Assembly: GCA_951406725.2 (NCBI GenBank)
Contig: OX597819.1
Coordinates: 80,166,001-80,230,000 of the forward strand
Direction: 5' to 3'
Source of the DNA: Octopus vulgaris
Lineage: Eukaryota
Length of the DNA stretch: 64,000 nucleotides
Of this stretch, positions 6,606 through 58,280 are shown in pieces. Below the pieces are notes generated by a model. The model saw nothing but the letters and a program-made list of their open reading frames with translations. It made no database searches and had not been told where the DNA came from. The position numbers were made by a program, and so were the translations under genes. Positions within the stretch are counted from its first letter, which is position 1. Each line of letters starts with the position of its first letter.

Positions 6606-7332
6606 TTCAACTTCTTCCCTTCTGGAGTCTCTAAACTTCCCTTCACTCTTGACATCAAGAGCCTATACATGGTGATCCCTCCCCACGAGGGGCTGCGTGC
6701 ACTCCAGCATTTCCTTGACCCAACCTCCAGCCTGACACATCCACACATTTCCAGCTGGCCTAACAGCTTCTCGTTCTCGGGTGATTTTTACCACCAGTTC
6801 TCGGGAGTGGCCATGGTAACGAGAATGGGCCCCAACTATGCGAATCTGTTCTACGTTGAGGCCCAAATATTCTTAAGTTTCACTGGTCTCACTCCTGAAC
6901 TATACGGTCGTTATACTGACGATTCTATCGGTGTGACCTAACACTCCCGCGAACATCTAGACTCCTTCCTCTCTTTTGTCAAATCTTTCCATCCTGCCCT
7001 ATACTTCTCCTGCACTATTTCCGACACCTCAGTCGCTTTTCTCGACATTTCGGTCAGCATTCATCACTCCACTCTCACCACATCCATCCACTACAAACAC
7101 ATAGACTCATATTCATACCTCAACTTCTCCTCCCATTCTAAACACACCAAGCTCTCCATCCCTATTCCCAATTCCTCCGTCTACGCAGGATCTGCAGTGA
7201 CGACCATGACTTTGAGACTCAGTCTCAACTCGTGGCTCGCCACTTCATCCTACGTGGATATCCCCTTACCACTATCCACACCGCCCTTGCCAGAGAACGT
7301 TCTGTGGACCGTGCATCTGCTCTCTCCCCCGC
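6606..7332 (+). mobile_element. Penelope-like retroelement, internal RT/thumb fragment (pseudogenised)
   Basis: FTLDIKSLY..IPPHEGLRAL; FYHQFSGVAMVTRMGPNYANLF; YGRYTDD; then AFLDISV..TTSIHYK..HTKLSIPYSQFLRLRRICSD..FILRGYP across a stop and a frameshift. These are PLE RT motifs. Confidence 0.92.
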
Positions 7333-14385: not shown

Positions 14386-15856
14386 TAGTTTTATTTTTAT
14401 AGCGTGCTTTCACTTCACTACCGAGCGCAGCTCTGTGTGCCTTGTGTATGTGCTGTGATTTGTTGTGATGCTCTGATGGTTATTGTATGGAAAGTGTTCT
14501 GCGTAGGATGTGTGCAGTGCCTAGTAGTGCAATTTTCTGTATGTTATATGTGTTTGTAAATCCTGGTGTTTTTGTTATGTATTTGTCTGAATATTTTTTT
14601 ATCATGCCTAATGCACCTACTATGATAGGAATTGTTTCTGTTTTCAGGTTCCACATTCTAGTTACCTCTATTTCCAGGTCTTTGTATTTTGAGAGTTTCT
14701 CCATTTCTTTTAGAGACACGTTGTCATCTGCCGGTATTGATACATCAATTAGAAAGCATTTTTTTCTTCATGATCTCTGACAACTATATCTGGTCTGTTG
14801 GCCTTAATTTCCCTATCTGTGTGTATCGGCATATCCCAGAGTATGGTTGCGTTCTCGTTTTCTGTGACCTTTTCTGGTGTGTGCCTATACCATCTTTTTT
14901 CTGTTGTTATTCCATAATGTTGGCATAGCTTCCAATGTATGTAGGTTCCAACTCTGTCATGTCTGTGAATATATTCCTTCTTAGCCAGGACTGGGCAGCT
15001 AGAGATAATATGATTTATTGTTTCTTGTCCATCTCCACATATTCTGCAGTTACTTGTAATATTTCTTTTCATTACATGTTTTTGGTAATTTCTGGTGGGG
15101 AGGCTTTGGTCTTGTGCTGCAATTAAAAATCCCTCTGTTTCTGCTTTGAGTCCTGAGCTTCTCAACCATTGCTGGGATTTTTCTTTGTCTATTTCTTTTG
15201 CGTTTAGTTTAGTGCAGTATTTACCATGAAGGGGCTTTTCTTGCCATCGTTTTATCATGGCTCGTTGCTGTTCTATTTTTAGTTTGGATTTCATTTGTTT
15301 TATAGCTTTTGTTGTTTCTTCATCATCTTCTTCTTCTTCTTTGTGTTTATTAGGTGGTATGATTTCTTGTTTGTATTTGTCAGCTTCCTTAAATACTGAG
15401 AACAGTTTTTTGTTTTGCTCGTGTTTTGCTGCTATCTGGATCAGTTTTCCTTCCTTCTGAAGTAGGTATTTTTGCAGTCCTATGGTGGTTATTTTATAGT
15501 AGTTTTCCAGCTGTATAAGGCCTCTACCACCTTCTATACGTTGTATATATAGTCTTTCTATGTCAGATTTTGGGTGATGCATCCTAGATCCTGTCAGTAT
15601 TTTTCTTGTTTTCCTATCTATTTTGGACAGTTCATTTCGTGTTCAGTTAAGGATATTGTAGCTGTAACTTATAACTGGGACAGCTAAAGTGTTGATACCT
15701 ATTATCTTGTTTTTAGCATTGAGCTCTGTTTTTAGTATTGATCTAACTCGTCTATAATATTCTTTTTTTATTTTCTCTTTCATTTGTGTGTGTTGTGTCT
15801 TATCTAGTTCATGGATTCCTAAGTATTTGTAAGTTTGGCTTTGGTCTAATTCTTTT
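14383..15856 (-). mobile_element. R4/Dong-like non-LTR retrotransposon, 5'-truncated (RT end, CCHC finger, restriction-like endonuclease, 3' UTR)
   Basis: YKYLGI; GGRGL; AAQDQSL; CRICGDGQETINHIISSC; RHD; RPDIVV..LIDVSIP..EK..KY; LLGTAHILRR*. One premature stop (~15643) and a 1-nt frameshift (~14760); (TAA)n on both sides. Confidence 0.95.
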
Positions 15857-21790: not shown

Positions 21791-22721
21791 CTCCGTTCCT
21801 CCTCCTTTTCTCTCTGTTTATATGTGTGAACATATTTCACTTTGTGCGTATGAGGAGAAGGAAGGTATCCATGTCACTTGTGTTCAATTACTAAATTGAA
21901 ATCCCTACTCTTTCTCTACATTCATATTTCTACGCTCATGTTCTTGCGTGTTTGTTTGTGCTTGCCTCCAGTGCCAAAGCATACTATCGCCCAAACAGGT
22001 TCAATGTTCACCCAGCCATGTCAAATTGTCAGCGTACTAACTGCTACGCCCAACAGTCTCATTCCATGTGCATCCATGGTTTACACTGAGTATACTACTC
22101 AGAATTCCTCCCTATTCTTATCAATATACATACCATATCCATTTCCAAGACAAGAGAACATTTCTTCTTTCCTTCTGAAATTTTGTAGTTGCTAGGTTTG
22201 TTTTGAGGTATCACGGTTGGAATTTTGTCTCCAAATCAATGGCAGATTCAGTTATGAAATCGAGACCATAAGTATATTGAAGTTTCTATGAACAACCGGT
22301 CTTAAACTCCTCTGTCATGTCTTGGAGAACTATGATGGTGCACAGAAATAGGGTAAGAAACAGGCCCTGGAAGACACAAATCCGCCTGTTGTCTCTCAAC
22401 CAAAATCCATTCACGAGTCATTGGGAAATTTAGTTTAAGTTTACTAATATATTGTGATATTGGTAAACCTCTACTAAGTTAATATACTAGAGTAGATGAA
22501 AATACAAGACACTGGCCAAAGTACTGTGCAATAAGATCGAACCAAACAAATTAGTGGTGAAGCGAACTGCTTAACCACATAGCCATGCTTGATATACATA
22601 TGTGTATGAGTCTGTGTGTTTGGTGCTTGTGTATATATTGGTGCTTGTCTGGTGTCTGTCTATATATGTGTGTGTATGATAGAGATGGAAAATGGAATGA
22701 ATACACGGAGAAGTTTATTGT

Positions 22722-22825
22722 TCACAACAATCGTTTCGACACATCGTGCACCGATCCCTCGCGTGAGGGAAACTATACAACTAGTTGTAGTTCACCCCTC
22801 GGTGCAGAAGCGTCTCGTCAGATGA
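22722..22825 (-). ncRNA. Type I hammerhead-ribozyme-like motif with long stem II
   Basis: tcat-CTGACGA-gacgc.tgcaccga...tcggtgca.gtgtc-GAAA-cgattg-TT-gtga. Confidence 0.65.
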
Positions 22826-22960
22826 TATAAATGTGAAATGAAGGGTATTTCGCTCGGATTTAATACGATATGTTGTTAGTGGCCACATGTTTAAGCCGCC
22901 AAGAAACCATAAGCAGTGAACGTGTTTTATCGGCGTACTACAAGGAATACACCCAAAACT

Positions 22961-23044
<84 letters not shown>

Positions 23045-45359: not shown

Positions 45360-45423
<64 letters not shown>

Positions 45424-45476
45424 CTCATATACACACACATTCGCACAAGCAGACACACGTTTATATGACGTGTACG

Positions 45477-45522
<46 letters not shown>

Positions 45523-45656
45523 TATATTATTAAATTAGAGACAAAACCACTATTAGGCAAATCAAACAATGAAAAACTTAAGCCAATACATAAGATTATT
45601 TAATTTATATTATTTAAATATATAACAAAATTATTAAAAAAATATAATTAATATCA

Positions 45657-45720
45657 CACTACGATCGTTTCATGCCTGCTAACTTCTTCAAATTTTTGAG
45701 TCGCAGTCATTCATCAGGTG
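45657..45720 (-). ncRNA. Type I hammerhead ribozyme motif, intact core, palindromic stem III
   Basis: cac-CTGATGA-atgactgc...gcaggcat-GAAA-cgatcg-TA-gtg. Confidence 0.78.
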
Positions 45721-45762
45721 GTTTAAATATTTATCTTGGCGAGGTTTAAACATATATATATA

Positions 45763-46333
45763 TGACGTCATTTTAAGAATTCTCGATCGGCATTTTTCGG
45801 ACGGTTCAGGTCCCTGTTAGTGTATGTGTTTTCATTTACGTGCACTAGCTACAGTATTAGAGCATTTTGGCTCTTATTTCAAGCAATGTAGGTGTTTCTT
45901 AACACACACCCTAGTCACATTTATAAGTAGAATTCTTCTTTATGGTGAAATATTGTAACCTGCTGTTTATATTAATTTTATGTATACACATTAGCCAATC
46001 GCTAAATCATTCATTAATTTGAATGACGGAAACATTTATATTGATAGCGATGCTATTCAGAAAAAAAACGAGTTCGAGCAGGCATAGCTGATGAGGCAAG
46101 GAAAATTGCCGAAACTGACGTCAGTATTAAGAGTTCTCAATCGGCATTTTTCGGACGATTTGAGTATTGTGTTTCCATTCATGTGCGTTAATTACAGCAT
46201 TAGGACATTTTAGGACTTAATTCTAGCTATGCATATGTTTCTTAATAATTTTAGTCACATTTAGTGACGATATTAATTCTCCTTTTTTAATGAAATATTG
46301 AACCTTCTGTTTATATAAATCATATATACACAC
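45763..46333 (+). repeat. Diverged tandem duplication with ~353-bp period, delimited by an HHR
   Basis: 45763-45990 is colinear with 46116-46333; both start with tgacgtca. Confidence 0.85.
46085..46129 (+). ncRNA. Type I hammerhead ribozyme motif, intact core, palindromic stem III
   Basis: tag-CTGATGA-ggcaa-ggaaaa-ttgcc-GAAA-ctgacgtcag-TA-tta. Confidence 0.78.
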
Positions 46334-46730
46334 ACGTGTATATATATATAAATATATATACATACAAACATACTTGACGTCATGAGAATGTGAAATAATT
46401 CTTTCAGGAAATCTCGAAGCAGATAATCCTATATATAATGAGGTTTAAATAATGGGTTTAAATCACTTTGAATAGAGAAAGTTGTAGACTCCTGTTATGT
46501 ATAGAAGAGAGATACGTTCGAATCCCAAAGCCAGCTGTAGCCTTTTTCTGCATAAAAGGTTTTTAAACCAATATTTGTAAGATATAATTTGTAGCTTTAT
46601 TTGCTTTGAGATACACAGTTTGGAAAAAAATAAAGATGTATGTATGCGTGTCTATATGATGTATATATATATATGTATGTACATATGTATGTATGTATGT
46701 ATGCATGATTATATCTCTCTACCCATCTGA

Positions 46731-50672: not shown

Positions 50673-50859
50673 TATTATTATTATTATTATAACAACAACA
50701 ACAACAACAACAACAACAATAATAATAATGATAATAAAGACGAAGAGCGCAATTCGATTGTAATAGATATTTTATTGGTTGAACGATATTTCAACAGTAA
50801 GTCAGTCTTTATCAAGTTCAAAATAAGATGTGATACAAATTCAAAATTATAGAGACACA

Positions 50860-51898
50860 ATTACTGAAGACATTCAAATCCCTTCATGGTCATGAACCAA
50901 TACTCTGGTTACGGTTCGTTGATGACGTATTTTTTGTTTGAGAAGGATGGCAAGAATAGTTTAATGGACTTCTTGCATTTCTGTGACTATGCTAATAACT
51001 ATGGCTTTAAGTCCAACATACAATTTACGTCTAGTTTTTCAAAAATTAGCGTTGAGTTTTTGGACACAAAAGTCAAGTTTTCTGGAGGCAGAATAGTGAC
51101 AGAGTTATTTTGCAAGCCCACGTCATCCCACATTTATCTCCACCGCTGCGCCGATCATCCTCATCATATTATTCGGTCAAATCCGAAATCCCAAATTTTG
51201 AGGATAAAGCGGATTTGTACTGACATAAGGGATTACTGGAAACATGCAAATGATTTTCTACATCATTATGTCAAACGCGTTTACAGTGAATCACGATTAA
51301 AGGAAATAGCAAATAAAATGGCTAAGATTAGCAAAGATAGTCAAACCTTCACGCATAATTTTAGCAAGTAAAATATAATAGACTAGGAGAGATACCCGGC
51401 GTTGCCCGGTTACATTCAATTGAAGAAGTAGACTTTTTTGTTATATTTTCTGTAATGAACTGAAATATCTATGTTTCGAATTTCATCAAAATTGCAGATG
51501 AGGGTTATTTCCCTCTTTACATACCCTAAAAAATTTGTAATCGTGCCACATGTATCCCATACTACTGATTTTTATGCACATATTCCAAAATTCCATTGTT
51601 ATTGAACCTGTTAAAAAGATTTTGCTCCTAAAAAATGAAGGTCATGGAGCTCTAAAATGTGAGAGTTAAGGCCCCTGTTGGGGGTGGGCATCTTAATGTC
51701 AACCAAAGAAGTTGAATTGTTGAAAATCTTTTTAACTTGGGTGTTATTTCTATTGTTTGAATTTCTTTGAAATAGGAAATATATGTTCACTGGGTTTGTA
51801 AAAGAGAGCAAAGCTACAGGAAACTAAAAGACGAACGATCACAATAAGCAGTCAGTTACCCTACCCTAGACGTTACTTGAACTACCGGTTCAAGAACT

Positions 51899-52695: not shown

Positions 52696-53640
52696 CCATA
52701 TACATACTGCAGAGAGATGTTTTTGTTTCACTTTTAACACGTAAGACTGAAATAGTGGAGAAGATATGATATTGCTGTGGGCTCGCCCTAGGCAAGAATT
52801 TAGAAATTCCTTGGACCCTAAGTAAGGTATGTGTAAAATTTGAATGAAATTGGTTGTGTAGTTCTCAAGTTTTAGGGAAACACACAGACAGACAGACAGA
52901 AAAACATTCTTAGTTTTATATATATATAGATAACAGAATTCCTTTAGTGATTAACTGACACCGAAATTTTGCTGGCATTTCAAAAGTGTTGCATGAAAGT
53001 TACCAGCATGTGGGAGAAAATACTCTTGTTTCAAACAAATATTTCCTCAGCCTCCTATTGTAGCCATTAGACGGAATAAGAATATAAGAGAATTATTGAC
53101 CTCTATTTCTGACTCCAAGAAAACGAACATTGGAGTATCTGCACGCTGTACCTTGAAAAACAGACGAAAGAGAGGTAAGCCACGTTCATTGTGCAGCAAC
53201 ATGAGTCAAGTGGATTCCATCAGGAGTCATGACAGAAATGTTATGATTTATACAGAAGGTTGGACGTGTAGAGATTCCCATTTTGTGTACGCTGCTGAAT
53301 GCACGAAACACAATTTATGTTGGTTGTACAACAGAACAATTAAACAAAAGGTTTAATGGGCACAGATTCGACGTCCGGCACAATAACAGTAGTTCGACAG
53401 AACTTGCTGAACATTTCGTTTCAAACAGCTGCAATTTTGAAGAAGACTTGAAAGTGCATATTCTCAGAAAATATTCTGAATCTACTTCACTTTCACTTCT
53501 CAGAATGTATGAGGAGAAATATGTTTGCTGGTTCTTAACATCACGCCCACGAGTAATGAATAAAACGGCAGGAGAATATCATCAAATTTATGCAAAACTG
53601 TTTGATTAAATATTCTCTTTCTCTTTCTATTTTCTTTCCT
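50860..53640 (+). mobile_element. Penelope-like element (RT C-half, linker, GIY-YIG endonuclease), pseudogenised and split by a Helitron
   Basis: WLRFVDDVF; EFLDTKV..KPT..YLH..HP..PKSQILRIKRIC; RIPLV..FPQPPIVAIRRNKNIRELL; C..C; VYAAECTKH / YVGCTTEQLNKRFNGH..AEHF..MN. Confidence 0.92.
51383..52930 (-). mobile_element. Non-autonomous Helitron inserted at an A|T site; contains a SINE A copy (~52105-52392)
   Basis: 5' A|TCtatatatatataaaactaagaatg..(TCTG)n; 3' hairpin ccgggcaacgccgg followed by CTAG|T; no TSD. Confidence 0.85.
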
Positions 53641-57540: not shown

Positions 57541-58280
57541 CATATACTCACATAAGATGGCCTCCACACAATACCTGTCTTCTAAATTAACTCACAAGAC
57601 ATTTATCGTCCCAAAATTATAGTAGAAGACTGTTGCCCAAGGTGCCGGGCAGTGAGACCGAACCCGAAACCTCATTGTTGTAAAAGGATTTAACTTCCTA
57701 AAAATTCAGTCCATGTTACCAATATCGTAACTACATCGTTACGTTATTTTAAAACATGTTTAACGTTATAAATTATATTGTTACTTTATAAGCATGTCTC
57801 CACATTATATCTACAGTATAACTTCACTGCTGTGTGATTGCATCATTTTGAAATTATACCTATATAGTTAGGTTGTAGCTATAAAGTTAAATAATAATTA
57901 TATAATTACTCTATAGCTTCATACCTGCGTTATAATTATACAATTACATTATAGCTGTATAATCACATTATATTTTCAATGTATAACATCAAGGAGGAAA
58001 GATGTTAAAAGTTATAATATAATGTAAATAAGAAAGAATACGTAGACGACCATAGTAGTACACGCAATCTGGAGTCATTGTTGCATTTTGGGGTAATTGT
58101 TCCGACTTTGTGGACTCCGAGTTCGTATTACGCTGAGGTTAACTTTGTCTCTCGTCATCGCGGGAACTGATAAGTGAAGTGTTAATCCGTTATAAAGGTC
58201 GAGTGTCCTCTGTGTTCCTCTCTCTCACTTTTTCCCCGCTCCCGCTTGTCCTTTATTCTAGATTCTATTTGTGAGAGATA

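Follow-up and report, generated by a model that had tools for sequence, protein, structure and literature searches.

The question raised by this locus is whether a hammerhead ribozyme at the junction of two tandem units delimits a small non-coding RNA element, a retrozyme, or is a relic of the 3' end of a Penelope-like element (PLE). A first-pass annotation, made from the letters alone, had favoured the retrozyme. The window referred to throughout is the whole 64-kb stretch of DNA analysed. The plus-strand element probably belongs to a multi-copy family of non-coding 354-nt repeats delimited by a hammerhead, of which it is a decayed 1.6-mer truncated at the 5' end; the family likely consists of non-LTR retrozymes that derive from PLEs and are mobilised by them.

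Hammerheads were located by a structure-based scan of both strands of the whole 64-kb window, with dinucleotide shuffles as a control. Exactly three were found, at 46088-46126 on the plus strand and at 45717-45660 and 22821-22726 on the minus strand; strict matches occurred in none of 40 shuffled windows, and loose matches at a mean of 0.05 per shuffle against the three observed. A relaxed scan of the window (one core mismatch, minimal helix III) returned no further hammerheads. The Rfam models, suggested earlier as a check, gave no hammerhead match at gathering score in the window and none at E <= 10 in 45400-46600. Scans with exact patterns returned no match in viral contigs, and none in metagenomes for the plus or the minus ribozyme.

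The plus-strand ribozyme is a type I hammerhead (46083-46131) with cleavage after 46126, defined by its sequence, the structure scan and the majority letters in four public runs. It comprises stem I (46083-46087/46127-46131), the catalytic core CTGATGA (46088-46094), a 5-bp stem II (46095-46110), GAAA (46111-46114) and stem III, a 12-nt palindrome (46114-46125); a 4x4 internal loop 1 and a 6-nt loop 2 are predicted by folding. The intact core that the first-pass annotation placed at 46085-46129 was recovered with these elements, and its label of 'minimal' hammerhead was dropped because a full helix III is present. The stem III palindrome contains TGACGTCA (46116-46123), the full cAMP response element, and copies of the family would spread sites of this kind.

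For comparison with other copies, contigs of the four runs (X1, X2, X4 and X6; three organism labels) were matched to 45528-46630 at 80% likeness, giving 2892, 1032, 209 and 3211 matched records, respectively. Stem I has three pairs in this copy, one of them G-U. The majority letters are T at 46084 and A at 46087 (750/871 and 812/871 of the X1 depth; the same letters in X2, X4 and X6), so that stem I has five Watson-Crick pairs in most copies. Stem I of this copy has decayed, as had been suspected from its three pairs. Further differences from the majority, at 46100 and 46102, lie in loop 2.

One monomer, measured from cleavage-site equivalent to cleavage site, occupies 45773-46126 on the plus strand (354 nt, 35.6% GC, non-coding) and is tiled by diverged contigs. 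It is followed by a partial second unit of 208 nt (46127-46334, plus strand), which has an 11-nt deletion near 46160, where loose contig ends also fall, and which terminates at a TATACACA stretch entering the (TA)n/(CA)n microsatellite (46335-46372) at the 3' end of the element. Aligned as 45763-45990 and 46116-46334, the units are 72.6% identical (E 6e-28, period 353; 162 of 203 ungapped columns identical), which bears out the claim of a hammerhead at the junction of two diverged tandem units. Unit 1 is preceded solely by a stem-III-like 9-mer, TGACGTCAT (45763-45771, plus strand), which follows (AT)5 and has no catalytic core in front of it; it may be an upstream stem III remnant or the left copy of a 9-bp target duplication. 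The locus holds 1.6 diverged units with a single ribozyme core, and two consecutive units with complete hammerheads are absent from it; no monomer can therefore be released from this copy, and the earlier proposal of cleavage at successive hammerheads does not hold here. This plus copy is likely inert.

Within the window, TGACGTCA occurs at 45763, 46116, 46375 and 49758 (0.33 expected). The first three positions agree with the first-pass annotation; a reading of 46375 as a further unit start is not supported, since there the letters probably encode, on the minus strand, the H-D-V codons of a probable GIY-YIG remnant. As a hammerhead, 46375 was rejected for want of a core on either strand, and 49758 was rejected as a family copy, having no similarity to the unit. 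The 9-nt direct repeat at 45763 and 46375 flanks the plus element and is longer than 4 bp, as target duplications of non-LTR retrozymes are when present, but its letters are those of stem III of the element itself. If the two 9-mers do represent a duplicated target, the insertion would begin no more than one base from the cleavage site; independent insertions nested in one (TA)n tract would fit as well. The locus is no assembly artefact: one contig matches 45777-45981 with no differences and a contig of another run matches 45984-46319 with five (none spans the whole stretch).

The principal alternative is an ordinary PLE pseudo-LTR, in which two 5'-truncated 3' ends of an autonomous PLE, its ORF absent here, would form a partial tandem. 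We regard this as unlikely, and the copies at other loci bear on it directly. That the unit is repeated, as first supposed, and not single-copy is evident from the contigs of all four runs, which form a multi-copy family. At the best covered sites (46102, 45996, 45956 and 45881) the majority letter is carried by 50-98 X1 contigs. At the plus ribozyme the summed depth reaches 15,213, while most single X1 contigs have 40-74; this suggests some hundreds of copies, depth being no copy number. Among 32 of the 7680 matching pieces, diverged ones tile the unit (45777-45995, 45856-46035, 45866-46047, 45931-46153), at least six bridge position 45990, the end of the unit 2 similarity, with 31 or more letters on each side, and at least eight with 32-42 differences (four in one run) cross the unit end, the hammerhead and the next unit start. 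Go-back joints, 45993>45773 and 46026>45815, were found in three runs, one contig each, with 105 further joints beyond those listed; they imply tandem order, and no record among those listed holds two cores. Taken together, the tiling pieces and the joints, in which the unit start recurs after the unit, indicate a family that closes on itself in about 350 nt. Of the 24 loose ends of the unit examined among 1136, none looked like foreign sequence, and they read as indel or subfamily variants. If two truncated copies had been joined here, their junction would be expected at this locus alone; in fact no position of the unit is without a diverged contig that bridges it.

One feature of the coverage favours the pseudo-LTR. 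Directly upstream of the core the depth falls to 404 (46046-46082), between 4853 and 15,213. The differences listed there involve letters that hardly any other copy shares, and the dip is ascribed to private mutations that starve short contigs of matches; it may also hide copies with other (ORF) sequence upstream. Across the unit as a whole there is no monotonic gradient, and about half of the depth continues past 45990. In run X4, guessed to be RNA, the family contigs have a profile like that of the DNA runs, which has no bearing on expression either way.

Two side features of the coverage were recorded. Over a small hairpin at 45861-45897 the X1 depth rises to 77,000, against about 6,000 beside it, which suggests a much larger related family that is alike at 80% in no other segment. 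In two runs, opposite-strand joints (45840/46088 and 46088/46183) suggest that members of the family are arranged in inverted orientation elsewhere; such arrangements are reported for PLE insertions (PMC8557442).

The second hammerhead, which the first-pass annotation had placed on the minus strand at 45657-45720 as unrelated to the first, was found by the scan from 45717 to 45660. It has a 3-bp stem I, a long stem II with one mismatch, an 8-nt palindromic stem III and a cleavage site at 45660. It belongs to a separate and much more abundant element (45528-45752, minus strand), the 3' end of which abuts (AT)n at 45477-45527. The summed X1 depth of this element is 63-72 thousand where the ribozyme lies and climbs to 1.4 million over 45528-45564, a figure that AT-rich cross-matches may inflate, and the same 3'-ward rise is present in all four runs. 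Because the depth rises toward the 3' end at (AT)n, the element is read as a 5'-truncated retroelement, likely the 3' end of a PLE. The plus family, unlike this one, has no one-sided depth gradient to a fixed 3' end, which counts against its being a pseudo-LTR. A link between the antisense hammerhead and the unit is not supported, the two having no similarity and different depth profiles; since this hammerhead lies outside the unit, in an unrelated family, the idea that it serves a replicating circle as its minus-strand ribozyme was rejected. A same-strand endonuclease (EN)-like remnant lies 620 nt upstream of the minus element, across the plus element, and its depth is much lower. The third hammerhead (22821-22726, minus strand) is again unrelated, with a CTGACGA core, a 77-nt branched stem II and a 4-bp stem I, and sits in a 300-nt element (22661-22961, minus strand) between (TA)n and a CA-rich tract.

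No reading frame was found in the unit by searches of limited power, in agreement with the initial description of a non-coding unit of about 350 nt delimited by a type I hammerhead. Pfam gave no match in the six frames read with X at stops, and tblastn of 136 PLE-type proteins against the unit gave a best E of 3.4. These proteins are relatives of one GIY-YIG (EN) query from the window and represent part of the PLE clades; RT and/or GIY-YIG was present in all seven that were scanned. A search with a single frame of the unit against longer proteins gave none at E <= 0.1 among 252 candidates. The same 136 proteins identified broken Penelope-like RT/GIY-YIG relics on the plus strand at 6642-7312, 50852-51338 and 52967-53633, which places PLE coding relics in the same 64 kb as the unit. 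No hammerhead was found behind the EN relic of the window, no RT/GIY-YIG ORF upstream of the plus element on its strand at this locus, and no tRNA genes. A relic of another non-LTR retrotransposon is present at 14483-15642 (minus strand; zf-RVT match, E 6e-06).

A broken stretch at 46373-46500 (minus strand) has the pattern GVY...YIG-x8-R-x3-H-x2-D, into which the third TGACGTCA falls, and is quite likely a real GIY-YIG endonuclease remnant. The window has two instances of YIG-x8-R-x3-H, one in this stretch and the other in the true EN relic (0.033 expected per shuffled window); with the added D the pattern is absent from all of 300 shuffled windows, although it was chosen after being seen. 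Sixteen of the 136 PLE-type proteins align to the stretch (best E 0.006); Pfam and a homologue search gave no match, and a motif HMM gave 2.6 bits, a score that three of 15 shuffles also reached. A 13-bp duplication (46435-46463) lies after the GVY motif and before YIG. This remnant adjoins the plus element, as might be expected of a pseudo-LTR, but lies 3' of it and on the opposite strand. The pseudo-LTR reading gains further from the literature, in which PLEs typically form partial tandems, are truncated at the 5' end and insert into (TA)n (PMC8557442), and PLE hammerheads are described as mostly solitary relics (PMC4209133). Set against the pseudo-LTR hammerheads of the latter study, the plus family closes on itself without an ORF, and its ribozyme has neither the bulged base after A9 nor the 7-8-bp helix II of PLE minimal hammerheads.

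Folded as a circle, the monomer scored z -3.1 (none of 100 shuffles as low). The unit body without the ribozyme gave z -4.7 on the plus strand (none of 60 shuffles) and -1.7 on the minus strand, and one of 48 control stretches of the window folded as well. That control (57590-57920, minus strand) is AT-rich with several hairpins and scored z -5.1, or -2.9 in a repeat run. Unit 2 alone had no structure signal (z +0.5). Differences between this copy and the majority letters were placed on the predicted fold: 40 of 192 difference rows were listed, 28 of them inside the monomer, and 27 were placed after a minority row (45987) had been dropped. Thirteen are unpaired; among them, the majority letter of every run at 46084 would create a further pair, as would the letter at 46068 that is the majority in X1 only. 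Of the 14 paired differences, four make up two both-sided changes, four keep the pair and six break it unless a partner among the unlisted rows also changes. Relative to the majority letters, the both-sided changes are G-C to A-U at 45826/45839, in a 13-bp hairpin (45816-45849) that also has three pair-keeping one-sided changes, and U-A to C-G at 46011/46022, in a 7-bp hairpin (46007-46026). A long-range extension of stem I (45782-45798/46060-46078) and a 16-bp long-range helix (45884-45899/46028-46043), all on the plus strand, are also predicted; the helix has no backing from the listed majority letters and is the least supported part. The predicted circle is highly self-paired, though six of the 14 paired differences are unexplained. 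Under this fold, the substitutions support selection on a plus-strand RNA.

According to the published model, retrozyme multimers are transcribed by read-through, cleaved, ligated by RtcB and inserted by target-primed reverse transcription with a PLE protein (PMC7229834, PMC4209133). For the plus family, intact multimers elsewhere would be transcribed by read-through, two hammerheads would pair via the 12-bp palindromic stem III and then cut, and a host RtcB-type ligase would close the monomer. Priming at a (TA)n target, a PLE RT/GIY-YIG protein would then copy the circle through more than one full turn; this would account for an insertion that is 1.6 units long and runs 208 nt past the cleavage site. 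This overrun and length call for a template continuous across the site, either a circle or an uncleaved multimer. The remaining alternative is a non-autonomous, internally deleted PLE that never formed a circle and either moved through linear multimer transcripts, uncleaved or cleaved in part, or was copied at the DNA level. It is improbable: a linear uncleaved multimer would yield a 1.6-mer equally well, the single ribozyme is predicted to misfold and PLE-type hammerheads cleave poorly in vitro (PMC4209133), but the rod-like whole-unit fold, the compensatory changes and a stem I conserved at 5 bp are in keeping with selection on a closed RNA, and similarly built elements of coral, mussel and axolotl have been shown to give circles (PMC7229834).

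If the plus family is a circular retrozyme, as preferred here, its ribozyme may also control when it cuts. In folding with the letters of this copy (3-bp stem I), the active fold of a single ribozyme scored -5.4 kcal/mol, against -12.5 for a fold that pairs 46087-46093 with the palindrome's 3' arm; for the 5-bp majority stem I the case was argued by hand. Two strands joined by the 12-bp stem III scored -35.1 with both cores free, worsening to -26.5 when the short 3-bp stems I were added, and forcing the active fold in the circle cost 4.4 kcal/mol; these are nearest-neighbour models, which leave out core and tertiary contacts. Similar but weaker misfolds are predicted for the other two hammerheads of the window. 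We hypothesize that the 12-nt palindromic stem III locks a single ribozyme in an inactive state and frees the core only in pairs. The 5' arm of the palindrome would mimic the stem I-core junction, so that the 3' arm would hold the core wherever the ribozyme is single, in monomers and circles alike; with the core paired in this way, the circle is predicted to be protected from re-cleavage. How circles are protected was left open by Cervera & de la Pena (2020; PMC7229834), and the lock, if true, would be an RNA-only answer for metazoan retrozymes as well as a natural pairing-dependent ribozyme switch. The full proposal, of a first retrozyme family in this likely cephalopod lineage with a self-locking ribozyme in which the 3' arm of the palindrome captures the core and dimer pairing releases it, is offered tentatively and is on balance doubtful.

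PLE pseudo-LTR hammerheads (PMC4209133; Craig, 2021, PMC8557442) resemble the plus element in their dimer-suited palindromic helix III, 5' truncation and microsatellite targets, and they fit the minus element (45528-45752) and the element at 22.7-22.96 kb. The repeat-type dimeric hammerheads of Aedes aegypti (Perreault, 2011; PMC3088659, Fig. S8 legend) have a long palindromic stem III plus a loop, with a 10-bp dimer stem against 12 bp in the plus family; the palindrome-core pairing predicted here found no mention in the passages of that paper that treat them. The repeat landscape of the window suggests an octopus. Among cephalopods, the giant squid paper (PMC6962438) counts 235 Rfam hammerhead loci, with nothing beyond the count where they are given. 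No description of a cephalopod retrozyme was found in the literature searched, to which Repbase and Dfam do not belong; the supplements of PMC7229834 and PMC4209133 may list cephalopod examples. That Rfam missed all three of the unrelated hammerhead families in these 64 kb suggests that many more lack annotation.

The retrozymes of Li, Clavereau & Pollet (2026; bioRxiv 10.64898/2026.07.22.740005) are like the plus family in having dispersed monomer and partial copies, PLE ORFs in the same genome and comparable sizes (51-972 bp). Their survey is without molluscs, and their 'active' class has two consecutive complete hammerheads where the plus locus has one; cleavage was obtained in only one of nine predicted dimers. 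At 354 nt and 35.6% GC, the unit lies within the 150-450 bp size range of retrozymes and below 50% GC. Its size, its GC content and the life cycle inferred for it agree with both that study and PMC7229834. The metazoan non-LTR retrozymes of the latter (mussel, 350-390 bp; axolotl, 330/350 bp) share with the plus unit a type I hammerhead at the junction, a non-coding length of about 350 nt, GC below 50%, a predicted self-paired circle and co-occurrence with PLEs. They differ in helix III, which has 1-2 bp plus a short loop in place of the 12-nt palindrome, and in that the hammerhead is predicted to be left free in most metazoan circles, whereas the plus ribozyme is predicted to block itself when single; circles have been shown for them, whereas the plus locus has one core and its family is known here from contigs of runs none of which is on record as RNA. 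Retrozymes have already been published as non-autonomous PLE derivatives (10.64898/2026.07.22.740005, PMC7229834). The plus element is best classed with the metazoan non-LTR retrozymes, as one of their dead copies; the class and its PLE origin are known, and the element extends it to a lineage without a description in the literature searched.
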